This document shows positions 2,795 to 57,467 of a stretch of 64,000 nucleotides of DNA, piece after piece. This stretch comes from Anaerolineae bacterium (GTDB lineage: Bacteria; Chloroflexota; Anaerolineae; Epilineales; Epilineaceae), in the NCBI GenBank assembly GCA_029262755.1, contig JAJCYU010000008.1, positions 114 through 64,113 of the forward strand, written 5' to 3'. The notes under the pieces are model-generated. The model saw only the letters and a list, made by a program, of their open reading frames with translations, was not told the origin of the DNA and did no database searches. The stretch's first letter is position 1, and each line of letters begins with the position of its first letter. Made by a program: the position numbers and the translations under genes.

Positions 2795-4858
2795 ATGCGC
2801 ATCGTGCTCGCCGACACGCTGGCCCAGAGTCTCGAAGCACTCGACAAGTCCGTGCGAGGGCTGGTCAAGCGGAAGGTCTTCGATTTCCAACTCGCGCCGG
2901 CCACATCCGGCAAGAGCTATCACCGCATCGATAAGGCACCGCAGCAAGGCTTCTGGTCCTTCCGCGTCAATCGCGACCTGCGATTGGTCGTCTTTCAGGA
3001 GGGCGACCTACGTGTCCTGTGCCACGTCGCCCACCATGACGACGCCTACGAATGGGCGATGCGTCACCGCTACGAGGAACACCCCAACACGACCGAGATC
3101 CAACTCGTGCGCATCGAGAAATCCGTGCGCGAGGTGATCGAGCGGCGGGTGAAGGTCATCGAAGAGTTGCCCCCCCTCTTCACGAAGCATACCGATGATT
3201 ATCTACTTGCCCTCGGCGTTCCGCCTGTCTGGTTGGACGCCATCAAGCTGGTGACGGAGGACACCCTTCTGGAAGCGCTCGACGAATTGCCCAGCGCCGT
3301 AGCCGAGCGTCTGATGCGGCTTTACGAAGGCAAGCCGGTGCCCCGCCCGGTGATCGCCGCGGGAGCGACGGGCTGGGATCACCCCGACACCGCACGCCAC
3401 TTCCGGGTACTGGGCTCCGAGCGCGAGTTGCAGCAGGCGCTGGAGTTCCCATGGCAGAAGTGGATCGTCTTCCTCCATCCCGAGCAGCGCAAAGTGGCCG
3501 AGCGCACCTTTTCCGGATCGGCTCTGGTGACGGGCGGCGCCGGCACGGGCAAGACGGTGGTCGCGCTGCACCGTGCACAACACCTTGCCGAGGCCAATCC
3601 GAACGCGCGCATCCTGCTGACGACGTTCTCGCGCACGCTGTCTGCAAGCCTCGAGCGCAACGCCCGGGTGCTGATGGGTGAGGACAGCCCGCTGTTGGAC
3701 CGCATTCACGTGGCCAACGTGCATCGCTACGCCGTGGAGGCCTACGAGGAAGCGCACGGCGCAGGACCGCATCTGATCAACGACCAGTCGCTCCAATCGC
3801 GGCTAGCCTCGATCTCGGGCCGGCTTGGATTCGACGAGTTCCCCCTCGACTTCATCGAGGCCGAATGGTGGAACGTCATCGATGCTTGGGGAATCCACGA
3901 TTGGTCGAGCTACCTGACTTTCGCCCGGGTTGGCCGCAAGCAGCGGCTGGGCGCCCGTCAACGGCAGCGGATGTGGCGTGTCTTCGAAGCGATGCTGGGC
4001 GAGTTGCGCGCTGACAACCGACAGACCTACAGTGCGCTTTGCGACACATTGCGCCGTGATGTTGAACATGGCCTAGTGCCCCGCTTCGATCACGTCGTCG
4101 TCGATGAAGCTCAGGACTTTGGACCGGCCGAGCTGCGCCTGCTACGGGCGCTCGTGCTGGAGGGGCCGGACGACCTCTTTCTGAGCGGTGACGCCGGGCA
4201 GCGCATCTTCCAGAGCCGCTTCCCGTGGCTGGCCGCCGATATCGACGTGCGCGGCCGATCGAGCACACTGCGTGTCAACTATCGGACCACCGAGCAAATC
4301 CGTCGCTTCGCAGACCGCATGCGCTTCGTCGTGCACGACGAGGCCGACCCGCTATCGCTTGACGAGGGCGCCGTGTCGCTCCTCGGTGGTCCTGAGCCGA
4401 CACTGATCGGCGCCGACGACAAGGCGGGGGAGATATTGACGCTGTCCACTTGGCTGGAAGAGTTGCTCCAAGACGGCTACCAGCCCGAAGACGTGGCCAT
4501 CTTTGCCCGCACCAAGAAGGTCCGCGACGAGCGGGGGCGCCCGGCCATTGAGCGCTCTGGCGCCCGTGTGCATGAGCTCAACGACGATCGCGAGCCGGAG
4601 GCAGGTTGTGTTTCGCTAGGCACGATGCACCGCGCCAAGGGCCTCGAGTTCAAGGCCGTGGCCGTCGCCGGCTGCGACCGGCGGATGCTGCCGCAGGCGT
4701 GGTTAGCCGAACGCATCGGTGACGCGGCCGAGCGCGAAGCCTTCATCGAGCGCGAACGACACGTCTTCTATGTGGCCTGCACCCGGGCACGCGAGCGGCT
4801 GCTGGTAACGTGGGTCGGGGAGGGGAGCGAGTTTCTGGAGGCAGTAGAACGGGATTGA
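2795..4858 (+). CDS. UvrD/PcrA-like SF1 helicase with an N-terminal RelE/ParE-toxin-like domain (~100 aa)
   Basis: Walker A VTGGAGTGKTVVALHRA, Walker B VVVDEAQDF, NYRTTEQI, GTMHRAKGLEFKAVAV and FYVACTRARERLLVT. The N-terminus VNRDLRLVVFQEGDLRVLCHVAHHDDAYEW follows the RelE/ParE sequence pattern. The ATG lies 4 nt after the upstream stop, with a GGAGG-like site inside the upstream gene's 3' end. Confidence 0.8.
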   Translation: MRIVLADTLAQSLEALDKSVRGLVKRKVFDFQLAPATSGKSYHRIDKAPQQGFWSFRVNRDLRLVVFQEGDLRVLCHVAHHDDAYEWAMRHRYEEHPNTTEIQLVRIEKSVREVIERRVKVIEELPPLFTKHTDDYLLALGVPPVWLDAIKLVTEDTLLEALDELPSAVAERLMRLYEGKPVPRPVIAAGATGWDHPDTARHFRVLGSERELQQALEFPWQKWIVFLHPEQRKVAERTFSGSALVTGGAGTGKTVVALHRAQHLAEANPNARILLTTFSRTLSASLERNARVLMGEDSPLLDRIHVANVHRYAVEAYEEAHGAGPHLINDQSLQSRLASISGRLGFDEFPLDFIEAEWWNVIDAWGIHDWSSYLTFARVGRKQRLGARQRQRMWRVFEAMLGELRADNRQTYSALCDTLRRDVEHGLVPRFDHVVVDEAQDFGPAELRLLRALVLEGPDDLFLSGDAGQRIFQSRFPWLAADIDVRGRSSTLRVNYRTTEQIRRFADRMRFVVHDEADPLSLDEGAVSLLGGPEPTLIGADDKAGEILTLSTWLEELLQDGYQPEDVAIFARTKKVRDERGRPAIERSGARVHELNDDREPEAGCVSLGTMHRAKGLEFKAVAVAGCDRRMLPQAWLAERIGDAAEREAFIERERHVFYVACTRARERLLVTWVGEGSEFLEAVERD

Positions 4859-4906: not shown

Positions 4907-6058
4907 CTACGAAGCGACCTGTAGAGCCTCCAACACAATGAAGCCGTCGATGGCAGCGCTCTCCGGAAGGGCACGCACCTGCTCGTCGAGCTCCATGGGT
5001 CGAACGTTGTGTTCGGCCATCAATTCGTACTGAAGTGCATATCCTTCAAGCACGCCGGCGCGCGCAGTTAGTCGGTTCATGAACGGGACGACCACGTCCA
5101 AGTCTCGCTGTCGTTGCTCGGCCGGCGAAGGCGCCGTGAACCGGTCCCGAATGCGTGACGCCGATAGGGCTGCGCGTGCCTTGTGGACATCCTCGAATTG
5201 GGGCTTGCGGATCGTTCGCTCGTCGTAGTAGGGGCCAAGCTCGCGCCGAAGGTCGTCCAACCGATCGCTCGCGTGATCTGAGTCCTCGTTCGCGAAACTG
5301 AGCCAAGCCGACAGGGTTGTTAGAGATACAGAGTCCACAAAATCGGCGTGCAGGAAGCGATGCGGTTCGTCGCCTAGCAGCAGATCGTTCGCAAAGCGCC
5401 TGGTATGGTCGCGCCACACCTCAATTCCGTCGGCGAGCTCGGAGGCCGCAAGGTTCATTGAGCCCATGTCGGCTTGACAACGGGCGAGGCCGAGTAGGGC
5501 GATGCAGAAGATCTGCTCGTTGGCGTCTGCCACGGTGATCTCCTCGGAATGCGCCAGCGCGTTGCGGTATTGGTGCGTCTTCACCGACAGATCGCGATAG
5601 GCATCCACCAAGACCTCTCGCTGGGCATCACCGTCCGCCATCTGAACCACCTTGGCCACTCGCTCCAGCGCGGCGTGCAGCTCCGCTCGCTCGCGGCGTT
5701 CGAGCAATTCGCGGATGGCTCTGACGTCGCGCGCGACAGATTCAAGGCGCTTCTCTAGCCGGTCCAACATCACGAACAGGGTCGAGAACCCTACGGCCGA
5801 GACGGCCAGGTTGAGTGCGGAGAAGGCCATCGTGGCCTGCATGCCTTGGAGGAGGAGAGGGGCGGATGCCGAAAGACGCGCCAACTCAGCTTGTTGTGGA
5901 ATCACCAGGTGGCGCACGATCTGACCGGCTCCCTCCTCTCCGGCCGCTCGGCGAACGACACCGCCGAGTACGGTGCACCGACGTGCATCTACGCAGGGAA
6001 GGACGTCGAGGGGCAGCGAACGCATGACGTTCATGCCGAGGATGCTCGAGTCGATCAT
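4907..6058 (-). CDS. Hypothetical protein with one predicted TM helix (AFSALNLAVSAVGFSTLFVML) followed by a coiled-coil-like region; start may instead be at 5842
   Basis: Long ORF, hydrophobic segment, no recognisable catalytic motifs. Sits on the same strand downstream of the two PD-(D/E)xK genes. Confidence 0.5.
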   Translation of the reverse strand: MIDSSILGMNVMRSLPLDVLPCVDARRCTVLGGVVRRAAGEEGAGQIVRHLVIPQQAELARLSASAPLLLQGMQATMAFSALNLAVSAVGFSTLFVMLDRLEKRLESVARDVRAIRELLERRERAELHAALERVAKVVQMADGDAQREVLVDAYRDLSVKTHQYRNALAHSEEITVADANEQIFCIALLGLARCQADMGSMNLAASELADGIEVWRDHTRRFANDLLLGDEPHRFLHADFVDSVSLTTLSAWLSFANEDSDHASDRLDDLRRELGPYYDERTIRKPQFEDVHKARAALSASRIRDRFTAPSPAEQRQRDLDVVVPFMNRLTARAGVLEGYALQYELMAEHNVRPMELDEQVRALPESAAIDGFIVLEALQVAS

Positions 6059-41672: not shown

Positions 41673-44600
41673 GTGCATGCCGGGCCGCTCTTGCATCGCC
41701 CTCGGGCCGCTGCCATCCTGGCACGCATGAGCGCGCCCGTCCCTCCCCCCGTCTCGCCCACCGGCGCGCCGCGCAACGCGCGGACCGCCCCGTTGCGGAG
41801 CCAACGTCTCCGCCGCCGCATCGCCCCGCCCGTCGTGCTCCTGATGCTGGTTCTGGGAGCCGCCGGACCGTGGGGGGCGCGGCGTCCCGTCGCGGGCCAA
41901 GAACCGCCGACCGTGACGCTCAGCGGCCAGATCGGCGGGCTTGCGTTGGATGTGGCCGTGGTCGCGGCCGGCAGCGCGGACGGAGCCGCGAGCCTGCGCG
42001 TCGCCGTGGGGCCGCGGGTGCTCGCGCTCGACGTCGGGACGACGGCCGGCGCGGACGGCGCACCGCCCGTCACGACGACCGCGACCTCGCCCCTGTTGCC
42101 CGGCCTGGTGAGGGCCGTGGCGGTGGCCGAGGACGGGCGTACGGTTGTCGTGGGCGATGCCTTTGGCGTAGCCGTATGGGACGGCAGCTCCGACGTGCTT
42201 CGACGTACGTTGGATGCCTTCGACGGGCGTGCAGTGACCGTCATCGGAGCGCGCGCCGTCGTGGCTACGCGCGAGGGGGAGATCCGCGTCGTGGATCTTG
42301 CGGACGATGGCGGCGGCGCCCCGGACGCGACGCTCGCCGTAGCCACGGCCGCGCCGGCGGTGGCGCGTGGGACGGCCGAGAACGTCGTGGCCGCGGCGCG
42401 TGTGGGCGACACCTGGTGGGTGGCCGTGCAGGCATCGGACGAATTGCCCGTCGCGTGGCTTGTGCCGATCGCGCTGGTTGGGGCGGAATCGCCGAGCCCG
42501 GGGGCACCCGTGCCGCTCGAGGCGCTGGTGCAGGACGTCTCCGCTACGGCGGATGGAGGGTTGCTCGTCCTGCAGGAACGACTGGGGCTTGCGCGTTGGG
42601 ACGTATCGGACCCGGCGGCGCCTATCGCGGGCGCCCGGCTCTCGCCGGAGGGATTGGATGCTCCGCTTCGTGGTGTGGTCGCGGATCGGGACGATCCACA
42701 AACGGCTTGGTTGCTCGGCGGCTTCGCGGGTGTCTTGGATGGGGACGGTAACTCGGGCACCGGACGCGTATGGCGCATGGCGCTGCCCGAACCGGGCGAT
42801 AGCGCGGCGCCGAGCGTAGCAGCCGTGGTCGCTACGGATCGGATTGCGGACCGTGGGGTCGCGTTGGGCGGCGGGCTGCTGTGGGCACTCCACGGCGATA
42901 CGGCGCTGTCCGCGGTGCGCACCACCGACGGTGCGCCTCCTTCCGGGAACGCGCCGACGCGGATCGGCTCGGCGTGGGCGAGTGTCGGCCTGGTTCGCGG
43001 CACCGCGGCGCGCCCCGATGGCCGGGTCGCGGTGGCCGCGGGTCCGGCGGGTGTCTGGCTGCTCGCCGACCAAGGCGCGGCCGGCTACGCGGTCGTCGAC
43101 GGCCCGTGGTCGGTCGGCGGCGAGGCGGATGCGGTGGCTTGGGACGCAGAGGGCCGGTTGTGGGTGAGCATGCAGCGGCCGGGCGCGGTGCAGGTGCTCG
43201 AGCTCCCGAGCACGCCGGGCGACGATCCGGTCAGCCTGGGGCGGCTCGAAGGGCTGGGCACGCCCGTCGACTTGGCGCTCGACGAGGAGCGCAGGCTGCT
43301 CTATGTGGCCGATGCCGAGACCGGTCTGTGGATCGCGAACGCGGACCCGGCGGCGCCGACCTTGATCGCGGAAGCAGCGGAGCTGACGGAGGCTTGGGCG
43401 ATCGTTCCGGACGTGGACCGGGTCTGGGTGGCCGGCGGCGATCGCGGCATCTATTGGATCGACACGCTGAATCCGGCCGCCACCCGCAGCGTGTACTCCG
43501 CCAACACGCCCGGGACGGCCTTCGGGCTTGCGCGCTTCGGATCGCACTTGCTCGTGGCCGATCTGGAAGGCGGCTTGCAGACCATCCGCACGCTTGCCGG
43601 ACGCCCGATGGCCGGTGGTAGCCTCGCGCTCGGCCAGGTCGTGGACGTCGCGGCGGTGGGCAGCTTCGGCTACGCGGCTGTGACGGGCGTCGGCGTCTTC
43701 GAATTCGATGCGCAGGACATCCGCGTGTTGACCGCACGCCGCGCCGTGCGTGTGCCGGGGCTTGTGCGGCGCCTCGAGTCGATCGAGGCGCGTGTAGGAG
43801 GACGCCTGCTTGCGACCGCGGGCACGGGTGGGCTGAGTTGGTTGGCGGTGCAAGCGCCACCGGGCTTGCCGACGCAGACGCCGCGGCCCACCGCGACCGC
43901 AACACCGACCCCGCCGCCGCCCGCCTTCATCCCTTGGGCCGGCACCGGCCGGGAGGAGACCCCGCTGCGCTTGAAGGATCGCGCGATGTTCACGGCCGAG
44001 GAGCTGGGCGGCCGGGCGCTGGGCGGCGTGGCGCTGCGCGGCGCACGGGCGGTGCTCGGCCTGGCGAACGTCCGTGGCGGCCCGCGCGCGGGACTTGCAC
44101 TGCTGGCGTTGGACGAAGTGCCGCCGCGCCTCTTCGGGCGACACGAGGGCCTGGACGTCGCGCCGCGCGATCTTCTGTTCGACGGCGCGCTGGTGGCGGT
44201 GGCAGCGTGGACCGACGGGCTGCAGCTGGTGAGCGTCGATTCGCTCGGCCGCTTCACCACGGCCGGATCCCTCAGCATGACGCTGCGCGCCGGCGCCGTC
44301 GCACAGGGCGAGGAGGGTACGCTCTACGTGGGCGGCACGCGCCTGGACGCCGGCCCGCGTGGAGGCTTGCTCGCCGTCGACGTGGCGGACTCCAGTGCGC
44401 CCCTTGCCCTCGCGGAAGCGCGCTTGCCCGACGCGGGCGCGATGGCGTATTCGGACGGCGCCCTCTTCGTTCTCGACTACACCGCCGGCCTACGCGTTTT
44501 CGACGCGCGCACGGTCGGCGCGCTCACCGAAGCCGTCACGATACCCGCACCGGGCGCGGCCGACATCGCCGCGCACGTTGCGTCGGACGGGCGCGTGCGC

Positions 44601-46926: not shown

Positions 46927-48659
46927 GCGTCTTCGTCCGCGCGCATCGGGATGCGCAGGCCTTGGGCGCGGGCTGTGTCCAGCGCGATGTCGTAGCCGGC
47001 GTCCGCGTGGCGGAAGACGCCGAGGGCGGGGTCGTTGGTGAGGACGCGCTCGATGCGCGCGGCGGCTTCCGGGCTGCCGTCCGCCACCACGACCTGGCCG
47101 GCGTGCTGCGAGAAGCCGATACCCACGCCGCCGCCATGGTGGAAGCTGACCCACGTGGCGCCGCTGGCGACATTGGCCATGAGGTTGAGCAGCGGCCAGT
47201 CGGAGACCGCGTCCGTGCCGTCCTTCATGCCCTCCGTCTCGCGCCGCGGGCTGGCCACGGAGCCCGTGTCCAGGTGATCGCGGCCGATGACCAGCGGCGC
47301 AGAGATCCGGCCGTCTGCCACCGCGGCGTTGAAGGCCAGGCCGGCCTGCGCGCGCTCGCCTTGGCCGAGCCAGCAGATGCGGGCCGGCAAGCCCTGGTAC
47401 GCGACGCGCTCGCGGGCCATGTGCAGCCAGCGGTGGAGGGGTTCGTCGTCGGGGAAGAGCTTCGCCACGATCTCGTCGGTGACGTCGATGTCCTTCGGAT
47501 CGCCGGACAGTGCCGCCCAGCGGAAGGGGCCCTTGCCCTCGCAGAAGAGCGGGCGAATAAAGGCCGGGACGAAGCCGGGAAAGTCGAAGGCGTTCTCGAC
47601 CCCGGCATCGAAGGCGCGCTGGCGCAGGTTGTTGCCGTAGTCGAACACGATCGAGCCGCGCTCCTGGAAGGCGAGCATCGCGCGTACGTGGTCGGCCATG
47701 GATGCCATGGACTCGCGTTCGTAGGCGACGGGATCCGCGCTGCGCAGAAGGTCGGCCTCCTCGGGCACGAGGTGGTGGGGGACGTAGGCCATCACGTCGT
47801 GGGCCGGCGTCTGATCGGTCACGATGTCGATTGCGTAGTCGGCGCTAAGGATCGTGGGCAGGATTTCAGCCGCGTTGCCGAGCAGGCCGATCGAGAGCGC
47901 TTCACCGGCCTCTTTAGCACGGGTAGCCCGTTCGAGCGCTTCCTCCACGTCGGCGGTCCACGTGTCCAGATAGCGGGTCTCGATGCGCCGCTCGATTCGC
48001 TGCTGGTCGACTTCCACGACGATCGCGACACCCTCGTTCATCGTCACGGCCAGGGGCTGCGCGCCGCCCATGCCGCCGAGGCCCGCGGTGAGCGTGATCG
48101 TGCCGCGCAGGCTGCCGCCGAAGTGGCGGCGGGCGCATTCGGCTAGCGTTTCGTAGGTGCCCTGCAGGATGCCCTGGGTGCCGATGTAGATCCATGAGCC
48201 GGCCGTCATCTGCCCGTACATCATCAGGCCCTTGGCCGCGAGGTCGTCGAAGTGCTCCTGCGTGGCCCAGTGGGGAACTAGGTTGCTGTTGGCGATCATC
48301 ACCCGTGGCGCGTCGGCGTGGGTGCGGATGACCCCGACCGGCTTGCCGCTTTGGACCAGCAGCGTTTCGTCGTCCGCCAGACGACGCAGCTCATGCACGA
48401 TCGCGTCGAAGGCCTCCCACGAGCGCGCGGCTTGGCCGCGCCCGCCGTATACGACGAGCTGGTCGGGGATCTCGGCCACTTCCGGATCGAGGTTGTTCAT
48501 CAGCATCCGCAGCGCCGCTTCCTGCAACCAGCCGCGGCAGGAGATCGTGGTGCCGCGCGGGGCGCGTACGGTGCGCGCGCCGGAAGGGGCCGCGGGGGAC
48601 ACCGGGGCCGCAGGCGGTGGAGCGGCTGAAGGGACGGAGGAGGGGGAGGGCGAGGGCAT
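46923..48659 (-). CDS. hutU: Urocanate hydratase
   Basis: [32 protein letters not shown]...[14 protein letters not shown]... matches the full-length HutU pattern (579 aa). Confidence 0.85.
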
Positions 48660-48879
48660 GGCGGCTCCGGGCTGCAATCTGCTGAGGGGGCAGACAGGGG
48701 GCATTCCGTGGGTTGGTTGACGCGCGTCCCGCAGGATCGGCCGGCCCGTGCAACGAAGCGGGCAATCGCGGAAACACGGGGTGGCTATGGTGCCACACGG
48801 GCCAGGGCGGCACAACGGAATCCACGCGCCATTGCGCCGCGCGATCGGCTATACTCGCGCTGGGTCGCGACTTGGATTA

Positions 48880-49075
48880 TGACGTGGCCCACGCCCCGTG
48901 GCGGGGGAAGTCCGGTGAGAGTCCGGCGCTGTCGCGCAACGGTAACCACGCTCGCCGCGAGTGGATGGAATGGGGAGATCGGCCTAGACGTCGGCCACCC
49001 TGATCGCTTCGCTCGCACTTCGTGGAAGCCCGAGTACCCGTCCGGTGGTGTTCGTCCCATCAGCCCTCGCGTACC
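48880..49075 (+). ncRNA. Cobalamin (AdoCbl) riboswitch candidate in the 5' leader of the DUF4430-like/ECF operon
   Basis: GGGAAGTCCGGTGAGAGTCCGGCGCTGTCGCGCAACGGTAA matches the cobalamin-riboswitch core (GGGAA..GGTG.AA.TCC..GC.G.C.CGCAAC.GTAA). The downstream GGAAGCCCGAGTACCCGTCC is a degenerate B12-box-like segment. Confidence 0.55.
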
Positions 49076-49199
49076 GGGGCTCGCGGACGAGGACCGGACG
49101 ACCCGGACCGTGAGCGTGCCCGACACGCAACGGCCGACGTAGCGGCCCCCGCCCTCGGCACCCCGGCGCACCGACCCCCGTGCCGGAGGCGCCGTCTCA

Positions 49200-51568
49200 T
49201 GAATACCCGTATTCCTGGTCCCCGTTTCAACCAAGTTCCCCCTCCATCCGCTAGCCTGAGCACGCGATCCCTGCGATCGTCACAGCTCGCCCGCCATGTC
49301 GCGCGCCTCTTCGCGCCCCGCCGGGCGCGCGGCCCGATCGCCGTCGTCGCGCTTGGGGCCGGCTTCGCGCTCGCCCTTGTACTTGGTGGGGCTTGGGCCG
49401 GGCCATCGGGGCCCTGGGGGCCCGGTGCGCTCGATGCGCATGGTGGCTTGGACGTTGACGTCGTGGTGGATTTCGGCGACGGGCGCGTCGAGGTGGCGCA
49501 CCTGGATGCGATCTCCGGGACGACGGCGCTCGACGCGCTGTACGCCACCGGGCTCGAGGTCGTGACGCACCACGCCGGCTTCGGGTTGGCCGTGTGCAGC
49601 GTGGGCGGTGTCGGCTGTCCGGCGGACGATTGTTTCTGCGCCTGTCAGGGAGAGGACTGCCGTTTCTGGGGCTTCCAGCACGGCGACGGGGCGGGGGGCT
49701 GGACGAGCGCGGCCGAAGGGGCGGGAGACTTCCTCCTTCCCGAGGCGGGGTCGGTGCAGGGCTTCGTATGGGGTCGGCCCGCGCCCATGGCGTGGACGCC
49801 CGAGCGCTTGGGTGCGATGAACGCGTGGACGTGGCTGCGCGGACAGATCCAACCGGACGGCGGACTCTTCGACCCTGGGCTCACCTTGGACGGCCTGCTG
49901 GCCGCGCGGGCGGTGCAGGCGGATCCTGCCGGCTGGCGCGCGGGCGACGGCGGGCCGAGCGCCGTGGATAACGTGCGCGCCGCGGCAGGCAGCTACCCCG
50001 CAATCGGTGCGGCGCAGGCGGGCAAGTACCTGGCCGGGTTGGCGGCGTTGGATCAAGGCCGGGTCACGCCGGAGGAACTCGCGAGCGCCAGGGCGCAGAC
50101 GCTCAGGACCGTCGACCTTGGGTCCGGGCGTTTTGGCGCGTCTGTTTGGGACCAGTCCTGGGCGATGATCGGCCTCGCAGCCTCGGACTTGCCCATCGGC
50201 GTGACGTGGATCGCGGCCTTGGAAGCGGAGGCGGCGGCCAGCGGTGGCTGGGGCGATCTGCCGGGCGCCGAAAGCGCGAGCCCGGACGCGACCGGCCTGG
50301 CACTGGCGGCGCTCGGCGCGGCCGGGGCGTCGGAGAGCCCCGCCGTAGCGCCGGCCTTGGCGTGGCTGACTGCGACGCGCCACGCGAACGGCGGCTGGGG
50401 CGGCGACGGGTCGGGCGATACGCCGGCCGGCAACGTGAACTCGTCCGCGTTGGTGGTCACCGGCCTGCTGGCCGTGGGCGAGGATCCGCGCGCAACACCG
50501 TGGACGGTCGATGGCGTGGGGCCGCTTACCTACCTGGCCTCGACACAGGAAGCCGAGGGCTTTCTTCTCCATACCCCCGATGCCAGCGAGCTGCTGGCCA
50601 CGCTGCAGGCAATCCCGGCGATGTCGGGACGCAGTCCCTTGCTGCGCGGCGCGGCGGTTTCGAGCGCACGCGCGGTGCAGGCGGCCCTGGACGAGCGGCA
50701 GATGAGCGGCGCCTTCGCGGCCGGTTTCATCGAGGGTGGTCCGGCGGCGACGATCGATGCGCTGCTTGCGCTGCATGCGGCCGGCGTGGATCCGGAAGAA
50801 GCGTTGGAGCAAGGTGCGCTCAGCGTGACCGCGTGGCTGATCGCCGAAGGTCCCGCCTACGCGCTGTCGGGCGCCGAGGGCGCAGGCCGGGTCGCGGCGG
50901 CGGCGGTGGCGTTGGGTCTCGACCCCGCGAACGTGGGCGGCGCTGACATCGCGGCGACCTTGGCCGGGCATCTCGACGCCGTGACCGGCCTCTTCGGGGA
51001 CGGCGCAACCGCGTCCCAAGCGTGGGCAATGATCGGCTGGTCGGCGTTGGGGCGCGACGTGCCGGACACCGTCATCGATGCGCTAATGGCGTTGGCCGGC
51101 GACGGCGGCTGGAGCATCGGCGCCGGCGCGCCCGTGGCGGACGCCGACAGTACGGCGCTCGCGCTTGAGGCGCTCGTCGCGGCGGGGCTGTCGGCCGATG
51201 ACGTGCGGGTGCGCGGCGTGGTTGCGGCACTCGGCGGCTTCCAGGATGCGAGCGGTGGCTTCCGCGGCCTCTTCGGCATCGCCAGCGCAGACACGACGGC
51301 GCGCGCGATCGTCGCGCTATCGGCGGCGGGCCAGCACGTCGACGCTCCGGGCTGGGCGCGCAGCCGCGATGGCCTGCGCTGGACGACGCCGCGCGAGGCG
51401 CTGACGGCGATGCAGTTGCCGAACGGACACTTCCCCGGCCTCGGCGACCAGCCGGATCCGAGCGCGACTTACGTGGCCCTGCGCGGCCTGGTCACGCGCG
51501 CGGAGTACGTGGCGCCGGAGGCCTCCGGTGGTCGCGTGTACCTGCCGTTGCTGGTGCGCCCGCGATGA
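49200..51568 (+). CDS. Secreted protein: N-terminal DUF4430-like (BtuG/transcobalamin-like) domain plus prenyltransferase/terpene-cyclase-like alpha/alpha-toroid repeats; C-terminus GRVYLPLLVRPR
   Basis: CPADDCFCACQGEDCRFWGFQH is the DUF4430-like Cys motif. Repeats ASGGWGDLPGAES, ANGGWGGDGSGD, GDGGWSIGAG. Signal-like IAVVALGAGFALALVLGGAWA. Confidence 0.65.
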
Positions 51569-53250
51569 GGCGGCGCTTCGGAGCGGTGGTCAAGGCAGTA
51601 GCAGGGGCGGGGCGAGCGAGCGGGGTTGCGCGTTGGCGGCGCATGTCGCGCTCGGAGCGGGCGCTGCGATCCGGTCGGCCGCGTCCCTCGCGCCCGCGAC
51701 CCTCGCGCCCGCGACCCTCGCGCCCGCGACCCTCGCGACCCTCGCGACCCTCGCGTCGCTCGCGATCGGTAGCGTCCGCCGCGCTTTCGACCCTCGTCGT
51801 CGGTCTAGCGGTGTTTGCTACGTTCGCAGCGGGCAGTAGCGGAGGCGGTGGCAGTGGCGGCGGAATTCGCGCTGAATTTGGAGGCGGTGGCAGTGGCAGT
51901 GGCAGCGACGGCGGTCGTGACGGTGGTCGCGACATCGGCCGCGACTCAGTGGCGGGGCGCATCCGTGCACTGTGGGCGGTGTCCGGCGTGGCGGCGCAGG
52001 AGGCGCCGGCGTTGGCCGGTCTCGTCGTCGCGATGCCGGATGGGTCGACGTTGGAGGCCTGCGTGGCCTTGGATGCGGACGAGATCAGCGGCGAGGAGTT
52101 GCTTGCGCGGGCTGGTGTGGTCGTCGGCGCGCGACGGACGCCGTTGGGGGCCATGGTCTGCGCGCTGGACGGACAAGGCTGCGATCATCCGGTGGAGCCT
52201 TGCTGGTGCGAGTGTCGCAGCCTGGGCGAAGACTGCCGTTATTGGGCATACCACGTGCGCGAGGAAAGCGGCTGGCGCTACGCGCCGCTCGGCCCGAGCG
52301 CCCGCCGGGTCGGCCACGGTGACGTGGATGGCTGGGCATGGGGCGCCGGCACCATCGCAAGCGGCGCCCAGCCGCCCGAGCGAACGTTTGCTGAGCTATG
52401 CGCGGCCGGTGCGACGGGCTCAGCGCCGGGTGGTGCAGCGCGTGGCGCACCAGGCGGTGCGACGGCAGGTGCGAGCGGATCGAACGCGCAGGCAACGCAG
52501 GCGGCGGTCGCTTCGCAGTCAGCGCGGGCGACGGCGGCAGCGCGGTCGGGCGGCGCCGCGACGCGGCCGGCGGAACCGGGGGGCGGTCGCGATGGGCAAA
52601 CTGGACGTGCTGGAGATGGGAGAAGGGAGGATGGTCGGAGCGGAGAAGGCCCGACGGAGGTAGGCGGTGCGGGTTCCTCGAATGGAACGGTGGTCGCAGA
52701 TTCGAGCCTGAGCGCGGGGTCCGGCGACGGAATGAGCGCTGGGACGCGGGACGCAACGGGTGCGGGCGCCCCCGGGGGCTCCGGGGGCTCCGATGGCGGC
52801 GGGGGACCCGACGCGGGAGCGAGCGACGGGGTGGATCTGGATGGCGCGGACGCGCAAGGGCCGCCGGCGATGGGCGCCGGTGCGTCGAGCGGCCGTACGA
52901 TCGCGACGCCGGGTGGTGGCGCGGGATCGGCGGGCGGGCGCACGGGTGATGCAGATCGCGCCGGCGACGGAGGTGCGGCGCCGGGGGCCGGCGCGTCTCG
53001 CGGCGGCGGTCGCGGGGACGGCGTGGCGGACGGTGGGATAGGCACCGCGGGTGGCGATCTTGAGCGCGGTGACTCTGACGGTGACGATCGCAATGGTGAC
53101 GATCGCGACGGTAACGATCGCATTGGTGACGATCGAGACAGCGGCGGCTTCCTTAGCGTGGGAGCCGCGGCGCGATCCGATGCGCTCTTTGGGGTGCTGG
53201 TCGCCGGGCTGCTGATCGCCGGGCTTGTTTGGTTGCGGCGGACGGTTTGA
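51565..53250 (+). CDS. Second DUF4430-like domain protein with extensive low-complexity tandem repeats and a C-terminal TM anchor
   Basis: EPCWCECRSLGEDCRYWAYH is the paralogous motif. SRPRPSRPRP and NGDDRDGNDRIGDDRD repeats. C-terminal helix LFGVLVAGLLIAGLVWL. ATGA overlap with the upstream gene. Confidence 0.6.
   Translation: MRRRFGAVVKAVAGAGRASGVARWRRMSRSERALRSGRPRPSRPRPSRPRPSRPRPSRPSRPSRRSRSVASAALSTLVVGLAVFATFAAGSSGGGGSGGGIRAEFGGGGSGSGSDGGRDGGRDIGRDSVAGRIRALWAVSGVAAQEAPALAGLVVAMPDGSTLEACVALDADEISGEELLARAGVVVGARRTPLGAMVCALDGQGCDHPVEPCWCECRSLGEDCRYWAYHVREESGWRYAPLGPSARRVGHGDVDGWAWGAGTIASGAQPPERTFAELCAAGATGSAPGGAARGAPGGATAGASGSNAQATQAAVASQSARATAAARSGGAATRPAEPGGGRDGQTGRAGDGRREDGRSGEGPTEVGGAGSSNGTVVADSSLSAGSGDGMSAGTRDATGAGAPGGSGGSDGGGGPDAGASDGVDLDGADAQGPPAMGAGASSGRTIATPGGGAGSAGGRTGDADRAGDGGAAPGAGASRGGGRGDGVADGGIGTAGGDLERGDSDGDDRNGDDRDGNDRIGDDRDSGGFLSVGAAARSDALFGVLVAGLLIAGLVWLRRTV
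51684..51760. repeat. 15-bp (CCTCGCGCCCGCGAC)n and 9-bp tandem repeats within a coding region
   Basis: Direct reading; encodes SRPRP repeats. Confidence 0.7.
53080..53138. repeat. 15-bp tandem repeat (GGTGACGATCGCAAT-like ×4) within a coding region
   Basis: Encodes NGDDRDGNDRIGDDRD. Confidence 0.7.
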
Positions 53251-56200
53251 GGGCAGGGGGCGCGGGCGCAGCGGAGGGATCGATCGCGCCGAGGCGAGCG
53301 GTGGCGCGATCGTCAGGCGGCTGGGGTGCAGGTCTGCCGCTGGTGGGCGTTTCTGTGGTCGCGGCAGCGGCCATCGCGTGGCCGTTCTGGGTGCCGCTGG
53401 CGGCGGGGGCGGCGGAGCGCTTGGCGGGCGAGGGCGGCTCGGCCCTCGGGCCCTACCTGGACGGCGCCGGCGCCGCCGCGACGGCGTCTTGGGCGGGGCC
53501 GTTGCTCCTCGTCCTGTGCGCGCTGGTGCTCGTGCGGGAGGCGGCGGTAGGCATGGGGCCCAAGGCGGTGGCCTTGCTTGGGGCGCTCGCCGCGCTGATG
53601 GCGGCTTTGCGCGTGGTCGAGACGATCGTGCCCGGGCCGGGCGGCTTTTCGCCGGTCTTCGCGTTGATGGTGTTGGCCGGCTACGGCCTCGGCGCGCGCT
53701 TCGGCTTCCTTGCCGGCGTGCTCGGCATGACCGTCTCGGCACTGGCGACGGGCGGCGTCGGGCCGTGGCTGCCCTATCAGGCCATCGCGGCCGGTTGGGT
53801 CGGCGGCACGTCGGGGCTGTTGCCGGGCGCGGGGGGCGAAGGTAGAAGACGCGACGTCTCACGGCGCCGGCTTCTTTGGCTCGCAGCCTTCGCCGCTGCC
53901 TGGGGCTTCGGCTATGGGCTGGTGCTGTCGCTCTGGGGCTGGACGTGGCTGGAGGGTGGCGCGGCGGCCGGGCCCGAGGGCGCGTTGGGCTGGGTCGCAT
54001 CACGTGCGGCGATGGCCCGCTTCGGCCTCTTCTACCTCGGCCTTTCGCTGGGCTGGGACGCATTCCGCGCGGTCGGTAACGCGGCGTTGGTCTTGGCCGT
54101 CGGCGGCCCCGTCCTCGCAGCGCTATGGCGCATGAAGCGCTGGCTCTCGGTCGGCGTGGTGGAGGGCGATGGGGTCGACGGGAGCGACGTGGTCGACGAG
54201 AGCGACGTGGTCGACGAGGGCGATGTGGTTATCGAGAGCGACGTGGTCGACGAGAGCGACGTGGTTGTCGAGAGCGACGTGGTCGTCGCAAGCAACGCGG
54301 TCGACGGGAACCGCGCGGTCGACGGGAACCGCGTGGTCGACGGGAACCGCGTGGTCGGTGCGAGATACAACGAACCGAACGCGAGTAGCGCGGTCTCCGC
54401 TCTTTCCGGCCCGGCGCCCGCGGTCGTGTGGGTCGCGTGGGTGGTTGCGGTGGCGGTGGTGGCTTCGGTGACGCGCAATCCGTGGATCTTGGCGTTGGCG
54501 TGGCTCGTGGTCGAGGTCGTGCGGGCGGCGGTGGCGCGTGGGGCTGCGGCGCCGTTTTCGGTGGCGCGGATGGCGCCGTGGATGATCGGGCTCGCGGCGG
54601 TGTACAACCTCGTCTTGTCGCGCTCCGGGGAGACCGTATTGCTGCGGGTGCCCGCGGCGTGGCCGGTGGTCGGGGGCGCGTGGACGGGTGAGGCGTTGGT
54701 CTACGGGGCATCGACGGGATTGGCGCTGGTCGTGTTGGTGGCGGCGTTTGTCACGTTGCAGGTGGCGGTCTCGCCGCGGGATCTCGTTGCCTTGGCGCCG
54801 CGGGCCTTTGCGGGGCCTGCGATCGTGACCGCCGTTGCGCTCAGCTGGTTGCCTGCGCTGCACACCCGTTGGAACGAGGCGGCCGAGGCGCGCGCGCTAC
54901 GCGGTTTCGGGGAGCGAGGACCGCGGGCGTGGCTGGCCCTGCTCGGGCCGGTGATCGTGGGCTCGTTGGAGCAGGCGACGGAGCTGGCTGAGTCCATGGC
55001 GGCTCGTGGTTTGGTGGATGCGCGTGCACCGTCCTTGGCCCGTCGATGGGCGGCCGGCGTTGGTCTGGCGATCGTCGCCGTCGGGTTGCTCGGGCCATGG
55101 GCCGAGAGCCTGGTACGGTGGGCGATGATCGGTGTGGGAATCGCGTTGCTGGCAGCGGGGCTGCGCGGCGGTGCGGGAGCCGGGCCCCGTCCCACCCGAC
55201 TGCGCGGCGGCCGGTGGCGCAAGCGCGACGTGGTGGTGCTTGCGGCCGTGCTTGGTGCGCTGCTGCTCGTGCTGTTGGTGCCCTCGGTGGCCATCGCGAC
55301 GCGGTGGCAGCCCTACCCCCGACTCTCGTGGCCGCCTGCGCCCGCGCTTGCGGTCCTCGCGGTCACGCTACTGGTCGCGCCGGCGGTGGGGGCGCGGTTG
55401 CGGGTGAGAGGGCCGATAGGGCGAGAGACGGGCCGCCGTCCGCGTGGGGCTCGGCGCAAAGCGGAGGGGGAGGGGACGAGGGCGAGCGATGGGCGATACG
55501 CGGAGTCGGCGGGAGGCACAGATAGACGGTCGCGGCTGCAGTCGGAGCGGCTGCTGGCGAAGCGGGTGCAGGCGGAGGGGGTGCAGGCGGCGCGGGTGTC
55601 GCGCGGGTCCGGCGGGGTTGCGACGAGCGTCGAGAGGGCGCTTGGCGATAGGTCGCTTGGCGATAGGTCGGGCGGAGATTGGGAGAGCGCAGAGAAGGCG
55701 AGCGTCGAGACGAAGAGCGTCGAGAGGGCGAGCAGTTACAAGACGAGCGTCGCCAAGCCGAACGTTGGGCTCGGGCCCGAGATCCGGTGGTCTGACGTCC
55801 GCGTACGCTATCCGGCGGACAGTGCGGACAGTGCGGACGGTGCGGACGGTGCGGACGGTGCGGACGGTGCGGACGGTGCGGACGGTGCGGACGGTGCGGA
55901 CGGTGCGGACGGTGTCGGCGGTGTCGGCGGTGCGGATGCCGCGTGGGGGAGCGCCGTCTTGGACGGGGTTGACGCTCGTGCCCTCGCAGGGGCGTGGACC
56001 TGGGTGGCGGGGTCGAGTGGGGCGGGCAAGTCGACGCTGTTGCGGACGGTGAACGGGTTGGTGCCGCACTTTACGGGTGGGCGGATCGAAGGCGCCGTGC
56101 GGGTTGGGGCGCACGATCCGATACGCACGGGGCCGGCGGGCATGAGCCGTGTCGTCGGCTTCGTCGCGGGCGATCCGGAGGCGCGTTCGATCGCGACGCA

Positions 56201-57467
56201 CGTGGCGGATGAGGTGGCCTTTGCCATGGAGCGGCAGGGGTGGCCGCGGGCGCGGATGGAGCGTGAGGTCCGCGCGGCGTTGCATCGCGTGGGGCTGGTG
56301 GGCTTCGAGGCCAGGCGGCTCGCTACGCTCTCGGGCGGGGAACGGCAGCGGGTGGCCGTCGCCGCGGCTATGGCGGCCGGGGCGGAGGTGCTCGTGCTCG
56401 ACGAGCCGACATCGCAGCTGGACGACGAAGCGGCCGCAATCGTGTTGGACGCCGTGCAGCGTCAGGCCGAGGCGGGCGTCACGGTGCTCGTGGCCGGGCA
56501 CCGGGCGGCACGGCTTGCGCCCCGGGCGACACGGGCGCTGAGGCTCGCGCGCGGGCGGGCGGAGATCGTGGATCCGTTGGCGCTCGCAGCGCGAATGGAG
56601 GTGGAAGAGCGAGAGCTGCTGGATGCCGTGCGCGGGGCGCGTGGTCGGGCTTCCGTGAAGACCGTAGATCGCGAGGCCGTGGAAGATGCGGTCGACGGGC
56701 TATGGGGGCGTGACGCGGACAGGTCGTCGCTTCCGCAGGCCGCGGCCCGCGGCGCCGGTGCGTCGTCGCCCGCCGAGGTAGCGGATCGTGATGCGGTCGT
56801 GCTGCTGCGGGACGTGACCTTTGCCTGGCCGGCCGCGGATGGAGAGGCAGAGCGCCTCGTGTTGGATGGGGTGAACCTTCACGTGCGGCCGGGGGAAGTC
56901 GTGGCGTTGGCGGGGGCGAGCGGAGCGGGAAAGACGACGTTGCTGCGCATCGTGCTTGGGCTGCTCGCTCCACGGTCCGGCGACGTGCTCGTTCAAGGCC
57001 GGCCCGTGACGGGAGGCGCCGCGGGCGTGATCGGACGGATCGTCGGCTACGTGCCGCAGCATGCGGCGACGATGATGTTGACCAGCAGCGTTCGCGAAGA
57101 GCTGCGCCTTACGCGCCGCGGCCATGGCCTTCCCGAGGCCGAAGACCGCGGGGCGATCGACGCGTTGCTCGAGCGGCTGAGGCTGGGTGAGCTAGCCGAG
57201 CGCGACCCCCGTGACCTGAGCACGGGGCAGCGGCAGCGGGTGGCCGTAGCGGCTAGCGCCGCGGGCCGGCCGGCGGCGCTGCTATTGGACGAGCCGACGC
57301 GCGGGCTCGACACGGCGGCGCTTGCCGCGGTTCTACGGGAGCTGCACGACGTGGCCGCGGAGGGAACGGCAGTGCTCGTCGCGAGCCATGACCGCCGCGT
57401 CCAGCAGGCGGCGCATCGGATCGTGACGCTGCGCAAGGTCGGCGACGATCTTGGGCTGGTGCGCTGA
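53229..57467 (+). CDS. Single 1412-aa ORF that appears to fuse all ECF-transporter modules: S-component-like membrane domain, EcfT-like transmembrane domain, and two ABC ATPase domains (EcfA-EcfA'), joined by tandem-repeat linkers. Candidate cobalamin ECF importer (CbrT/CbrV/CbrU-like)
   Basis: S-like region: GPKAVALLGALAALMAALRVV...FALMVLAGYGLGARFGFLAGVLG. T-like region: LEQATELAESMAARGLVDARAPS. ATPase 1: GSSGAGKSTLLRTV...LSGGERQRVAVAAAMAAGAEVLVLDEPTSQLD. ATPase 2: GASGAGKTTLLRIV...LSTGQRQRVAVAASAAGRPAALLLDEPTRGLD. There is no in-frame stop for 4.2 kb. The start (TTG at 53229) is uncertain. Confidence 0.6.
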   Translation: MVAADGLRAGGAGAAEGSIAPRRAVARSSGGWGAGLPLVGVSVVAAAAIAWPFWVPLAAGAAERLAGEGGSALGPYLDGAGAAATASWAGPLLLVLCALVLVREAAVGMGPKAVALLGALAALMAALRVVETIVPGPGGFSPVFALMVLAGYGLGARFGFLAGVLGMTVSALATGGVGPWLPYQAIAAGWVGGTSGLLPGAGGEGRRRDVSRRRLLWLAAFAAAWGFGYGLVLSLWGWTWLEGGAAAGPEGALGWVASRAAMARFGLFYLGLSLGWDAFRAVGNAALVLAVGGPVLAALWRMKRWLSVGVVEGDGVDGSDVVDESDVVDEGDVVIESDVVDESDVVVESDVVVASNAVDGNRAVDGNRVVDGNRVVGARYNEPNASSAVSALSGPAPAVVWVAWVVAVAVVASVTRNPWILALAWLVVEVVRAAVARGAAAPFSVARMAPWMIGLAAVYNLVLSRSGETVLLRVPAAWPVVGGAWTGEALVYGASTGLALVVLVAAFVTLQVAVSPRDLVALAPRAFAGPAIVTAVALSWLPALHTRWNEAAEARALRGFGERGPRAWLALLGPVIVGSLEQATELAESMAARGLVDARAPSLARRWAAGVGLAIVAVGLLGPWAESLVRWAMIGVGIALLAAGLRGGAGAGPRPTRLRGGRWRKRDVVVLAAVLGALLLVLLVPSVAIATRWQPYPRLSWPPAPALAVLAVTLLVAPAVGARLRVRGPIGRETGRRPRGARRKAEGEGTRASDGRYAESAGGTDRRSRLQSERLLAKRVQAEGVQAARVSRGSGGVATSVERALGDRSLGDRSGGDWESAEKASVETKSVERASSYKTSVAKPNVGLGPEIRWSDVRVRYPADSADSADGADGADGADGADGADGADGADGADGVGGVGGADAAWGSAVLDGVDARALAGAWTWVAGSSGAGKSTLLRTVNGLVPHFTGGRIEGAVRVGAHDPIRTGPAGMSRVVGFVAGDPEARSIATHVADEVAFAMERQGWPRARMEREVRAALHRVGLVGFEARRLATLSGGERQRVAVAAAMAAGAEVLVLDEPTSQLDDEAAAIVLDAVQRQAEAGVTVLVAGHRAARLAPRATRALRLARGRAEIVDPLALAARMEVEERELLDAVRGARGRASVKTVDREAVEDAVDGLWGRDADRSSLPQAAARGAGASSPAEVADRDAVVLLRDVTFAWPAADGEAERLVLDGVNLHVRPGEVVALAGASGAGKTTLLRIVLGLLAPRSGDVLVQGRPVTGGAAGVIGRIVGYVPQHAATMMLTSSVREELRLTRRGHGLPEAEDRGAIDALLERLRLGELAERDPRDLSTGQRQRVAVAASAAGRPAALLLDEPTRGLDTAALAAVLRELHDVAAEGTAVLVASHDRRVQQAAHRIVTLRKVGDDLGLVR
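54171..54357. repeat. 18-bp perfect tandem repeats (GACGAGAGCGACGTGGTC-like ×6, then GACGGGAACCGCGYGGTC ×3), in-frame in the linker between the S-like and T-like modules
   Basis: Encodes DVVDESDVVDEG... and VDGNRAVDGNRVVDGNRVV. Confidence 0.75.
55815..55935. repeat. 9-bp perfect tandem repeat (GCGGACGGT/GCGGACAGT ×~12), in-frame linker before the first ATPase domain
   Basis: Encodes ADSADSADGADGADGADGADGADGADGADG. Confidence 0.75.

Follow-up and report, generated by a model that had tools for sequence, protein, structure and literature searches.

A probable cobalamin riboswitch of diverged sequence in the leader of a predicted corrinoid-uptake operon of an Anaerolineae bacterium

Results

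A probable riboswitch in front of a three-gene operon

We analyzed a stretch of 64,000 nucleotides (nt) from an Anaerolineae bacterium of the Chloroflexota (assembly GCA_029262755.1, contig JAJCYU010000008.1), referred to here as the window and numbered from its first letter. On its plus strand, gene 1 (49199-51568), gene 2 (51565-53250), and gene 3 (53229-57467) follow one another, and for the region 48880-49075 in front of them a first-pass annotation had proposed a cobalamin (vitamin B12) riboswitch. Our results make it very probable that positions 48862-49091 (+) are a functional cobalamin (corrinoid) riboswitch forming the 5′ leader of this three-gene operon, which is predicted to serve B12 uptake. 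The region named earlier lay on the element with its ends clipped: by our annotation the aptamer spans 48862-49045 and a regulatory hairpin reaches out to 49091. The core motif GGGAAGTCCGGTGAGAGTCCGGCGCTGTCGCGCAACGGTAA (48905-48945) and the B12-box-like sequence GGAAGCCCGAGTACCCGTCC (49024-49043) cited for that proposal are present on the plus strand, and the distance of ~130 nt given to the first gene agrees with its ATG at 49199, which is 124 nt past the end coordinate proposed then and 154 nt beyond the 3′ strand of helix P3.

The homology of the aptamer, its positional conservation, the covariation of its helices, the hairpins downstream of it, and the fold of the encoded proteins were computed. 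When the entire window was searched on both strands with all 4227 Rfam families, the cobalamin riboswitch aptamer RF00174 was the only family with a match of E < 0.1 (E = 0.002; runner-up, E 0.76). The match covers the full length of the model (positions 1-189), extends over 48845-49059 (+), and scores 28.8 bits; in a search of an 801-nt region with permissive filters its E value was 2.5e-5. Posterior probabilities of the alignment are ~1 for the joining region J3/4, P4, loop L5, the start of P6, the B12 box, and the 3′ strand of P3. As the curated gathering score of RF00174 is 31.5 bits, a scan of the whole window at gathering thresholds returned no match at all. The cmscan search that had been suggested as a check of the proposal therefore gave a significant full-length match, but one under the gathering score. 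The odd P1/P2 arm could not be confirmed as the sole cause, because rescoring from P3 onward gave 25.1 bits; the score loss must be spread over P1/P2, an insertion in P6, and a diverged B12 box.

Related loci were collected by three routes. Protein 1, the product of gene 1, has just eight homologues (32-59% identity) among ~5.8 billion clustered proteins, and five loci (L001 to L005) were obtained via these homologues, four (L006 to L009) by a scan of reference genomes that brought the loci found through protein 1 to nine, and three (L010 to L012) via the domain of protein 2. The four loci from the reference-genome scan all come from Chloroflexota metagenome-assembled genomes (Roseiflexaceae, Thermoflexales, Anaerolineae, and unclassified Chloroflexota). 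At all 12 loci an RF00174 match lies directly 5′ of the orthologous module, and at 10 of them it exceeds the gathering score (32.6-72.2 bits). The scores were 62 (L005), 47.9 (L003), 32.6 (L002), 27.7 (L001, a partial match), and 24.6 bits (L004, truncated by the contig end) for the loci found via the homologues of protein 1; 55.4 (L009), 53.2 (L006), 52.7 (L007), and 45.2 bits (L008) for those from the reference genomes; and 40.7 (L010) and 53.5 bits (L012) for two of those found via protein 2. The third, L011, has two riboswitch copies (1891-2021 and 3334-3508; 39.8 and 72.2 bits), one before each of two consecutive alpha/alpha-toroid genes. The first-pass reading of a cobalamin riboswitch thus holds, and its support is chiefly comparative.

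The leader of the window can be aligned end to end with those of L001, L002, and L003. Near-invariant blocks in these four leaders are the aptamer core, GGAAGCCCGAGUACCCGYCCGG (the B12 box with the 3′ strand of P3), AGCCCUCGCG...GGGGCU, CCCCGCCC...CCGG, and the Shine-Dalgarno (SD) sequence with the ATG. The core, the B12 box, the hairpin P13, and the SD blocks are invariant although the adjacent proteins share only 40-59% identity. RNAalifold applied to the four leaders recovered P3, P4, the base of P6, P13, and a hairpin around the SD sequence. P3, P6, and the SD hairpin each contain compensatory pairs; drawn from four sequences, this covariation has low statistical power.

Anatomy of the aptamer

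A putative promoter element, the -10-like hexamer TATACT (48850-48855, +), lies 6 nt 5′ of the first helix. Three of the four leaders carry such a hexamer 6-7 nt ahead of P2, as TATACT in the window and L001 and as TATAAT in L002. A sigma-70 consensus scan of 48600-49300 found no full promoter. The sequence suggests that the transcript starts at about 48861-62, at P2. Because the -10-like box is conserved and no convincing P1 helix was found, a start near 48861 would go along with a P1 that is either absent or fused into a long P3; L002 has a 6-bp P1, as read from its leader sequence.

The first helix, P2 (48862-48890, +), appears in the minimum free energy (MFE) folds as a hairpin of GGGUCGCG (48862-69) and CGUGGCCC (48883-90) with a 13-nt loop. 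The relatives form P2 from different complementary strands (CGGGUCGCG/CGCGACCCG in L001, GGCCGC/GCGGCC in L002, and GCCCCGC/GCGGGGC in L003), and the Rfam model leaves it unaligned, scoring it as non-pairs (NC line 'vvvvvv') with large insertions and deletions. The 5′ strand of P3, CCG(U)GGCGGG (48896-48905, +), forms 9 bp with 49037-49045 (RNAduplex, -16.4 kcal/mol); across the four leaders RNAalifold counted 12 pairs in P3, with one two-sided and several one-sided changes.

The conserved core as aligned to RF00174 (48905-48950, +) comprises J3/4 with GGAA, P4 (48910-27), J4/5 with GC, P5 with its loop L5 (UCGCGC, 48932-37), and the 5′ strand of P6 (ACGGUAACCACG, 48939-50). GGAA in J3/4, GGUG...CCGG in P4, GCUG, L5, and CAAC.GUAA at the start of P6 are all in place and invariant in the four leaders. 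P4 itself does not vary, P6 has seven pairs with three two-sided changes, and covariation supports the four-way junction of P3 to P6 in the same alignment. At 48926-48937, GCGC-UGUC-GCGC could form a 4-bp hairpin that buries L5 bases together with two P4 pairs, and RNAalifold favors this hairpin over the canonical 2-bp P5. This hairpin may trap the kissing-loop bases in the apo state or may simply be a by-product of the palindromic L5.

Beyond the core, P6 carries a peripheral extension of ~70 nt (48951-49020, +), which folds as a long irregular hairpin, is treated by the Rfam model as a 63-nt insertion, and varies in length among the relatives: from the end of the L5/P6 5′-strand motif to the B12 box there are 82 nt in the window versus 15-28 nt in L002 and L004 to L008. 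By published criteria for the two architectures (PMC11260477), the sequence of the window points to class I, and that of L004 to L006 would be class-II-like. Since the latter carry only 15-16 nt in P6, the class appears to differ within the orthologous set, and ligand selectivity may differ with it.

The aptamer is closed by the 3′ strand of P6 (CGUGG), the B12 box AAGCCCGAGUACCC, and the 3′ strand of P3 (CCCGUCCGG, 49037-45), which together occupy 49021-49045 (+) in the RF00174 and four-leader alignments. The sequence AAGCCCGAGUACCCGUCC (49026-43) retains AGCC.G...ACC.G.C. It deviates from the Rfam consensus (~rAGYCMGgAgaCCkGCc) at 5 of about 17 positions, and among the window and L001 to L003 the box differs at merely 2-3 positions.

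A hairpin with a loop complementary to L5 follows the aptamer

A P13-like regulatory hairpin (49051-49091, +) was predicted in every fold. Its lower stem is UUCGUCC/GGACGAG (49051-57 with 49085-91) and its upper stem AGCCCU/GGGGCU (49062-67 with 49076-81), enclosing the loop L13, CGCGUACC (49068-75), of which CGCG (49068-71) is complementary to CGCG of L5 over 4 bp. An L5-L13 kissing loop has been established experimentally for cobalamin riboswitches, in which the alpha face of the ligand contacts it (PMC5028336).

Ten out of ten leaders have a hairpin after the aptamer. It begins 18-26 nt past the B12 box in nine of them (for L009 the distance was read from the sequence and for the other nine loci it was computed), and at 56 nt in L001, where another hairpin is inserted. 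The P13 loops of the ten leaders contain CGCG or CGUG. In L001 and L002 the L5:L13 pairing extends to 5 bp, with a U-A/A-U swap between the two, and in the distant relatives CCGC pairs with GCGG or GUGG. Independent riboswitches with the same L5 variant as the window were sought in metagenomes. The scan gave 120 pattern matches, mostly chance hits in coding DNA, from which 12 unique riboswitch-like loci were kept; 9 of these have, no more than 110 nt past the B12 box, a hairpin with a stem of 4 bp or longer that presents CGCG, versus 3.4 expected from shuffles, and other GC 4-mers used as a control gave 1-7. For the window, the kissing loop is indicated by complementarity, which is weak when the window is taken by itself.

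Spacer, Shine-Dalgarno hairpin, and the leaders of distant relatives

P13 is followed by a C-rich, G-poor spacer (49092-49155, +; C/G 1.33), a possible Rho-loading region. The C/G ratio is 1.55 over 49092-49184 and 1.35-1.89 in the equivalent stretches of L001 to L003, as against 0.85 in the aptamer. Next comes a hairpin (49156-49194, +; 49156-69 with 49180-94, ~-24 kcal/mol) that sequesters the SD sequence GGAGG at 49185-89 and has its equivalent in L001 to L003, with partly compensatory changes. A scan of 48600-49300 detected no intrinsic terminator, and no canonical upstream open reading frame (uORF) with an SD sequence was found after P13 in the window.

Two candidate relays between the aptamer and the SD hairpin were rejected. 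Pairing of the P13 3′ strand with the anti-SD sequence was discarded because forcing or blocking P13 left the probability of an unpaired SD unchanged at 4 of 4 loci. A strand exchange between the 5′ strand of P3 (48895-907) and a P3′-like segment (49144-59) that overlaps the anti-SD reached -23.3 kcal/mol but is unsupported in this GC-rich context, with shuffled sequences equally good in 43/200, 47/200, 179/200, and 153/200 cases for the four loci. The segment 3′ of the P3 3′ strand (CCGGUGGUG, 49042-49050) resembles the SD region (CCGGAGGCG, 49183-49191), and L002 has the 7-mer CCGGAGG at both 5884-5890 and 5988-5994. By eye, this SD-like repeat in the window and L002 recalls the anti-anti-translation-initiation region that overlaps the B12 box in Mycobacterium tuberculosis switches.

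The distant relatives have the SD sequence within the 3′ strand of P13 and a start codon immediately after it, belonging either to the main gene or to a short ORF (P13/leader-ORF regions: L004, 77-187; L006, 1141-1185; L007, ~3729-3870; L008, ~5609-5700; L009, ~5576-5680). The short leader ORFs have 29 codons in L004 and 42 in L009, and by eye 6 in L007, 7 in L008, and 4 in L006. In L005 the start after P13 is that of the main gene, ATG 3165. The start called for this gene, TTG 3258 (859 amino acids [aa]), is probably wrong, since ATG 3165, an in-frame start directly behind P13, is preceded by AAAGGA and would make the protein 890 aa long. A terminator-like hairpin with a U-run lies between the short leader ORF and the main gene in L007 to L009, a sequence arrangement which suggests riboswitch-controlled leader translation coupled to attenuation.

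Genes 1 and 2 encode proteins with a predicted transcobalamin-type beta domain

Gene 1 encodes a protein of 789 aa with an N-terminal membrane anchor, a Cys-rich beta-like domain (residues ~84-191), and two alpha/alpha-toroid repeat domains. Two observations support its start at ATG 49199: GGAGG stands 9 nt ahead of it, and the public NCBI protein P0001, likewise 789 aa long, is identical. The 561-aa product of gene 2 has a Cys-rich beta module (~140-290), long low-complexity regions, and a C-terminal hydrophobic anchor, and belongs with PF28005 (NCBIfam SCO2322 family). Outside the beta module it is largely of low complexity, with N-terminal PRPSR repeats and a stretch of ~250 residues enriched in G, A, D, and S, and it is far longer than its homologues of ~200-260 aa. 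The Cys-rich module is common to the two proteins and has the motif VC..GVGCP...CFC....C(R)(F/Y)W. The two proteins had no Pfam match, and showed a faint similarity to squalene cyclases and prenyltransferases and a weak match to the NCBIfam 'SCO2322 family'. Homologues of the beta module are PF28005 members and unnamed hypothetical proteins.

AlphaFold (AF2) modeled protein 1 with a predicted local distance difference test score (pLDDT) of 79.7 and a predicted template modeling score (pTM) of 0.80, as a beta domain (84-191) followed by ~580 residues of alpha/alpha repeats; the isolated beta module reached a pLDDT of 83.4. In a Foldseek search of the Protein Data Bank (PDB), the whole protein matched squalene-hopene cyclase (E 7.7e-6), the beta subunit of farnesyltransferase, and transcobalamin (4zrp_A, E 4e-4, and 8ixu); the alpha/alpha-toroid fold is generic and hence not specific to transcobalamin. 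For the beta module, the best 19 PDB matches (E 9e-5 to 1.3e-3, root mean square deviation [rmsd] 2.6-3.6 Å) were all beta domains of cobalamin carriers or the bacterial DUF4430 protein 3u7z, and the next match followed at E 0.14, a 100-fold gap. They include transcobalamin (2bb5_A, E 9e-5, rmsd 2.6 Å; as an isolated domain 5no0, TM score 0.71), haptocorrin (4kki), intrinsic factor (3kq4 and 2pmv), and 3u7z (TM score 0.83). The models thus predict a transcobalamin-type (DUF4430-type) beta-domain fold, partnered with an alpha/alpha-toroid. Sequence similarity to the transcobalamin family was not detectable (no Pfam match at E ≤ 10), and the binding residues are not conserved at the sequence level.

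The order of the domains varies. The beta module is N-terminal in protein 1 of the window, C-terminal in the homologues P0006 and P0008, and a separate protein in L010 to L012, so that toroid and beta domains are fused in either order or split over two genes. None of the operon genes encodes a B12 biosynthesis enzyme. Judged from the models, the operon most likely encodes two surface-anchored, transcobalamin-like, predicted corrinoid-binding proteins and an energy-coupling factor (ECF)-type transporter for B12 uptake.

Gene 3 encodes predicted parts of an ECF transporter

The 1412-aa frame of gene 3 contains, by profile matches, an S-component-like region (~112-290), a CbiQ/EcfT domain (400-594), and two ATP-binding cassette (ABC) ATPase domains. 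The T component and the two ATPases were found above the respective cut-offs for CbiQ (26.7 bits, cut-off 25) and TIGR01166 cbiO (241.8 bits, cut-off 211.8), with ABC_tran matching in two stretches at 178.6 bits. Residues 112-290 gave sub-threshold matches to ECF-ribofla_trS (25.3 bits, cut-off 26.7) and ECF_trnsprt (24.5 bits, cut-off 30.7), families that separate S genes of L010 and L012 match as well, and showed no similarity to any solved S component. The ECF parts are encoded by two to four separate genes in the relatives versus one uninterrupted frame in the window, which is either a real four-part fusion or a set of internally initiated genes in a stop-poor, high-GC frame.

At the loci found via the domain of protein 2, the genes again run from toroid protein(s) through the beta-module protein and the ECF S component to CbiQ and the double ATPase. 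The operon continues with a gene for a CobA/BtuR adenosyltransferase in L011 and with CobT and CobS in L012. The earlier label of a 'B12-themed operon' is therefore backed by the predicted transcobalamin beta fold, the ECF/CbiQ components, and these genes of the relatives, but not by any Pfam match of proteins 1 and 2.

On the other side of the leader, hutU (46923 to ~48659, -), encoding urocanate hydratase, is divergent from the operon as annotated before (Urocanase_N, Urocanase, and Urocanase_C, E 1e-59 to 1e-89). It lies outside the switch and is the same neighbor in L001 and L002. Other RNA matches were a COG2908 RNA at 42762-42788 (+) of the window (20.6 bits, E 0.76, gathering 58.7), almost certainly noise; a bacterial RNase P class A RNA in L011 (10073-10585, 280 bits), unrelated and a few kb downstream of the module; and sub-threshold matches of up to 53.9 bits to eukaryotic miRNA precursors on both strands of L010 (8318-8472), just past the CbiQ gene, probably a long near-perfect inverted repeat or hairpin.

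Discussion

The comparative evidence settles that 48862-49091 is a real but unusually diverged cobalamin riboswitch. Class I adenosylcobalamin-type riboswitches (RF00174, clan CL00101) include those of Escherichia coli btuB and of Thermoanaerobacter tengcongensis. The element shares with these the core GGGAA-P4-GCUG-L5-CAAC-GUAA, the B12 box (AGCC.G...ACC.G.C), the four-way junction of P3 to P6, a long peripheral extension of P6, and a place in the 5′ leader of genes for B12 transport, which in the window are predicted ones. It differs from the family in a P3 of 9 bp rather than ~3, an unalignable P2, the lack of a detectable P1, and an L5 of UCGCGC in place of the C-rich consensus. The riboswitch alone is of a known class and is unsurprising to a specialist; the interest of the locus is in its cargo and in its uncoupled expression platform.

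Several observations weigh against a functional riboswitch in this leader. The score remained below the curated threshold of RF00174, and rescoring the core only (48893-49048) brought no gain and a different local alignment. No convincing P1 was found in the window, and shuffled sequences fold with an MFE as good as that of the leader (z = -0.30), a comparison that is uninformative. The L5:L13 pairing of the window is only 4 bp long and was equaled by 73 of 500 loop shuffles. P13 is ~100 nt away from the SD, unlike in the classical design and unlike in the distant relatives, and in equilibrium folding of apo and holo states the SD stayed paired whether the aptamer and P13 were free or locked, so that no ligand-dependent switch was demonstrated in silico. 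The sub-threshold score, the shuffle-like folding energy, and an SD hairpin that appears constitutive in silico would also fit a decayed, nonfunctional riboswitch remnant or a chance GC-rich resemblance, with operon expression independent of B12. We consider this very improbable: the match has an E value of 0.002 over the whole window, it is kept in the same place at all 12 related loci, the core, B12 box, P13, and SD are invariant beside proteins only 40-59% identical, and P2, P3, and P6 show compensatory changes. Such upkeep is not expected of a remnant.

The closest parallels for the expression platform are found in two groups of switches. The env8 hydroxocobalamin riboswitch, reportedly described by Johnson et al. 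in 2012, is said to act by an L5-L13 kissing-loop mechanism. As in env8 (Polaski et al. 2016, PMC5028336), a hairpin with a loop complementary to L5 comes straight after the aptamer in the window, and the linker between aptamer and P13 is similarly short (the lower stem comes 5 nt after the P3 3′ strand, and the distance from the B12 box is ~25 nt). Unlike in env8, where the ribosome-binding site (RBS) is part of L13/P13, the SD of the window is located ~100 nt downstream in a separate hairpin. The ppe2 and metE switches of M. tuberculosis resemble the window in their high-GC leader, the absence of an intrinsic terminator, and the AUGA at the main start, and also in a fused or elongated P1-P3 arm, a proposed L5-L13 kissing loop, and a proposed role for Rho and/or a uORF (PMC11260477). 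In ppe2, the P1-P3 arm is fused and AUGA serves a termination-reinitiation design (PMC11260477). The window differs from ppe2, which has a truncated P6 and a demonstrated SD-led uORF, by its long P6, the lack of a canonical uORF start, and an unrelated cargo.

We infer a corrinoid ligand, an OFF polarity, and a link from kissing-loop docking to the distal SD. When enough corrinoid is present, the ligand would bind to the four-way junction and stabilize the kissing loop between L5 (UCGCGC, 48932-37) and L13 (CGCG, 49068-71) of P13. The docked kissing loop would then turn the operon off, either by keeping ribosomes from initiating at ATG 49199, or by letting Rho terminate transcription in the C-rich spacer, or by both. 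As the operon is predicted to encode transcobalamin-like binders and an ECF-type transporter, such a switch would stop the scavenging of B12 in times of ample supply. The SD is already held in a stable predicted hairpin, and since it is ~100 nt downstream in a hairpin of its own, docking cannot mask it directly; the final step could act on translation directly, work through Rho, or involve a non-canonical leader ORF.

Two variants of this last step deserve separate weight. In one, the element is a real corrinoid riboswitch whose output is mainly transcriptional, the ligand promoting Rho-dependent termination or mRNA decay in 49092-49184 instead of masking the RBS directly. This would account for a leader without an intrinsic terminator, for spacers with a C/G of 1.33-1.89 in all four close loci versus 0.85 in the aptamer, and for an SD that is sequestered in silico whatever the state of the aptamer, and Rho-assisted control has been described for high-GC B12 riboswitches (PMC11260477). 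A rut site, however, is not definable from sequence, and the distant relatives place the SD inside P13, which points to translation as the ancestral output; we therefore regard a mainly transcriptional output as possible but the less probable course. In the other variant, P13 and the kissing loop control the initiation of a short upstream ORF, as in ppe2, whose translation opens the distal SD hairpin or allows re-initiation at AUGA. Experimental precedent exists (PMC11260477), short ORFs (4-42 codons) come behind an SD in the 3′ strand of P13 in the distant relatives, L002 and L003 have UUG or AUG immediately 5′ of P13, the window and L002 both have AUGA at the main start, and the SD hairpin is too stable in silico for unaided opening. 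Yet no canonical start preceded by an SD is present there in the window, which reads AUC where L002 and L003 have UUG or AUG, and L001 lacks a start at that site as well. The sole GUG frames (49045-49113 and 49110-49142) have no SD and end before the SD hairpin, and no start codon in a matching frame follows the UAG at 49140-42. Leader-ORF control of the window operon thus seems unlikely to us. The preferred reading remains an OFF switch that acts through a ligand-stabilized kissing loop, by whichever final step.

The predicted cargo has counterparts in two known systems. ECF-CbrT is an ECF-type vitamin B12 transporter of Lactobacillus delbrueckii (PMC5997447). The window resembles it in having an ECF-type transporter, with a CbiQ/EcfT T component and two ATPases, implicated in B12 uptake. 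It differs in that its S-like region is without sequence similarity to any solved chain, among which any deposited structure of ECF-CbrT would be counted, that all components are in one 1412-aa frame, and that genes for two predicted extracellular proteins of transcobalamin type come before the transporter gene. ECF-CbrT is not known to have such partner proteins. The second counterpart is the family of transcobalamin, intrinsic factor, haptocorrin, and DUF4430 (3u7z), which the Cys-rich module resembles in its modeled beta-domain fold (TM score up to 0.83). The alpha/alpha-toroid domains likewise have the fold of the transcobalamin alpha domain, and the toroid-then-beta order of P0006 and P0008 is that of transcobalamin. 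Unlike transcobalamin, protein 1 of the window has its beta module at the N terminus and two toroids, and L010 to L012 carry toroid and beta domain on separate proteins.

Taken together, the locus may represent an uncharacterized prokaryotic corrinoid-capture system, a reading that we hold to be about evenly balanced. In it, anchored transcobalamin-like proteins (toroid plus Cys-rich beta, PF28005 'SCO2322') would deliver B12 to an ECF transporter dedicated to it; the system would occur across Chloroflexota, always under a B12 riboswitch, and in the sub-lineage of the window the ~100-nt gap between P13 and the RBS would imply an undescribed relay. Searches of the literature for this system, or for B12 riboswitches in front of genes for SCO2322, DUF4430, or prenyltransferase-like proteins, found nothing relevant. 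For annotation, the locus is a case of a functional-looking cobalamin riboswitch below the Rfam gathering score, for which default pipelines show an operon that looks unregulated and of unknown function. The kissing-loop hairpin that is uncoupled from a constitutively sequestered SD poses a small mechanistic question, comparable to that of the atypical mycobacterial switches.

The wider meaning lies with the proteins. The riboswitch, present at 12 of 12 loci, is a strong guilt-by-association link to B12 for two families catalogued only as 'hypothetical', 'SCO2322 family', or 'prenyltransferase-like', and structure prediction independently gives the transcobalamin beta-domain fold. Together they make a testable hypothesis on B12 scavenging in these Chloroflexota, one that bears on the origin of the animal B12-carrier architecture: should the proteins prove to bind corrinoids, the animal transcobalamin/intrinsic factor family would have in them its structural counterparts, and possibly its relatives, among bacteria.

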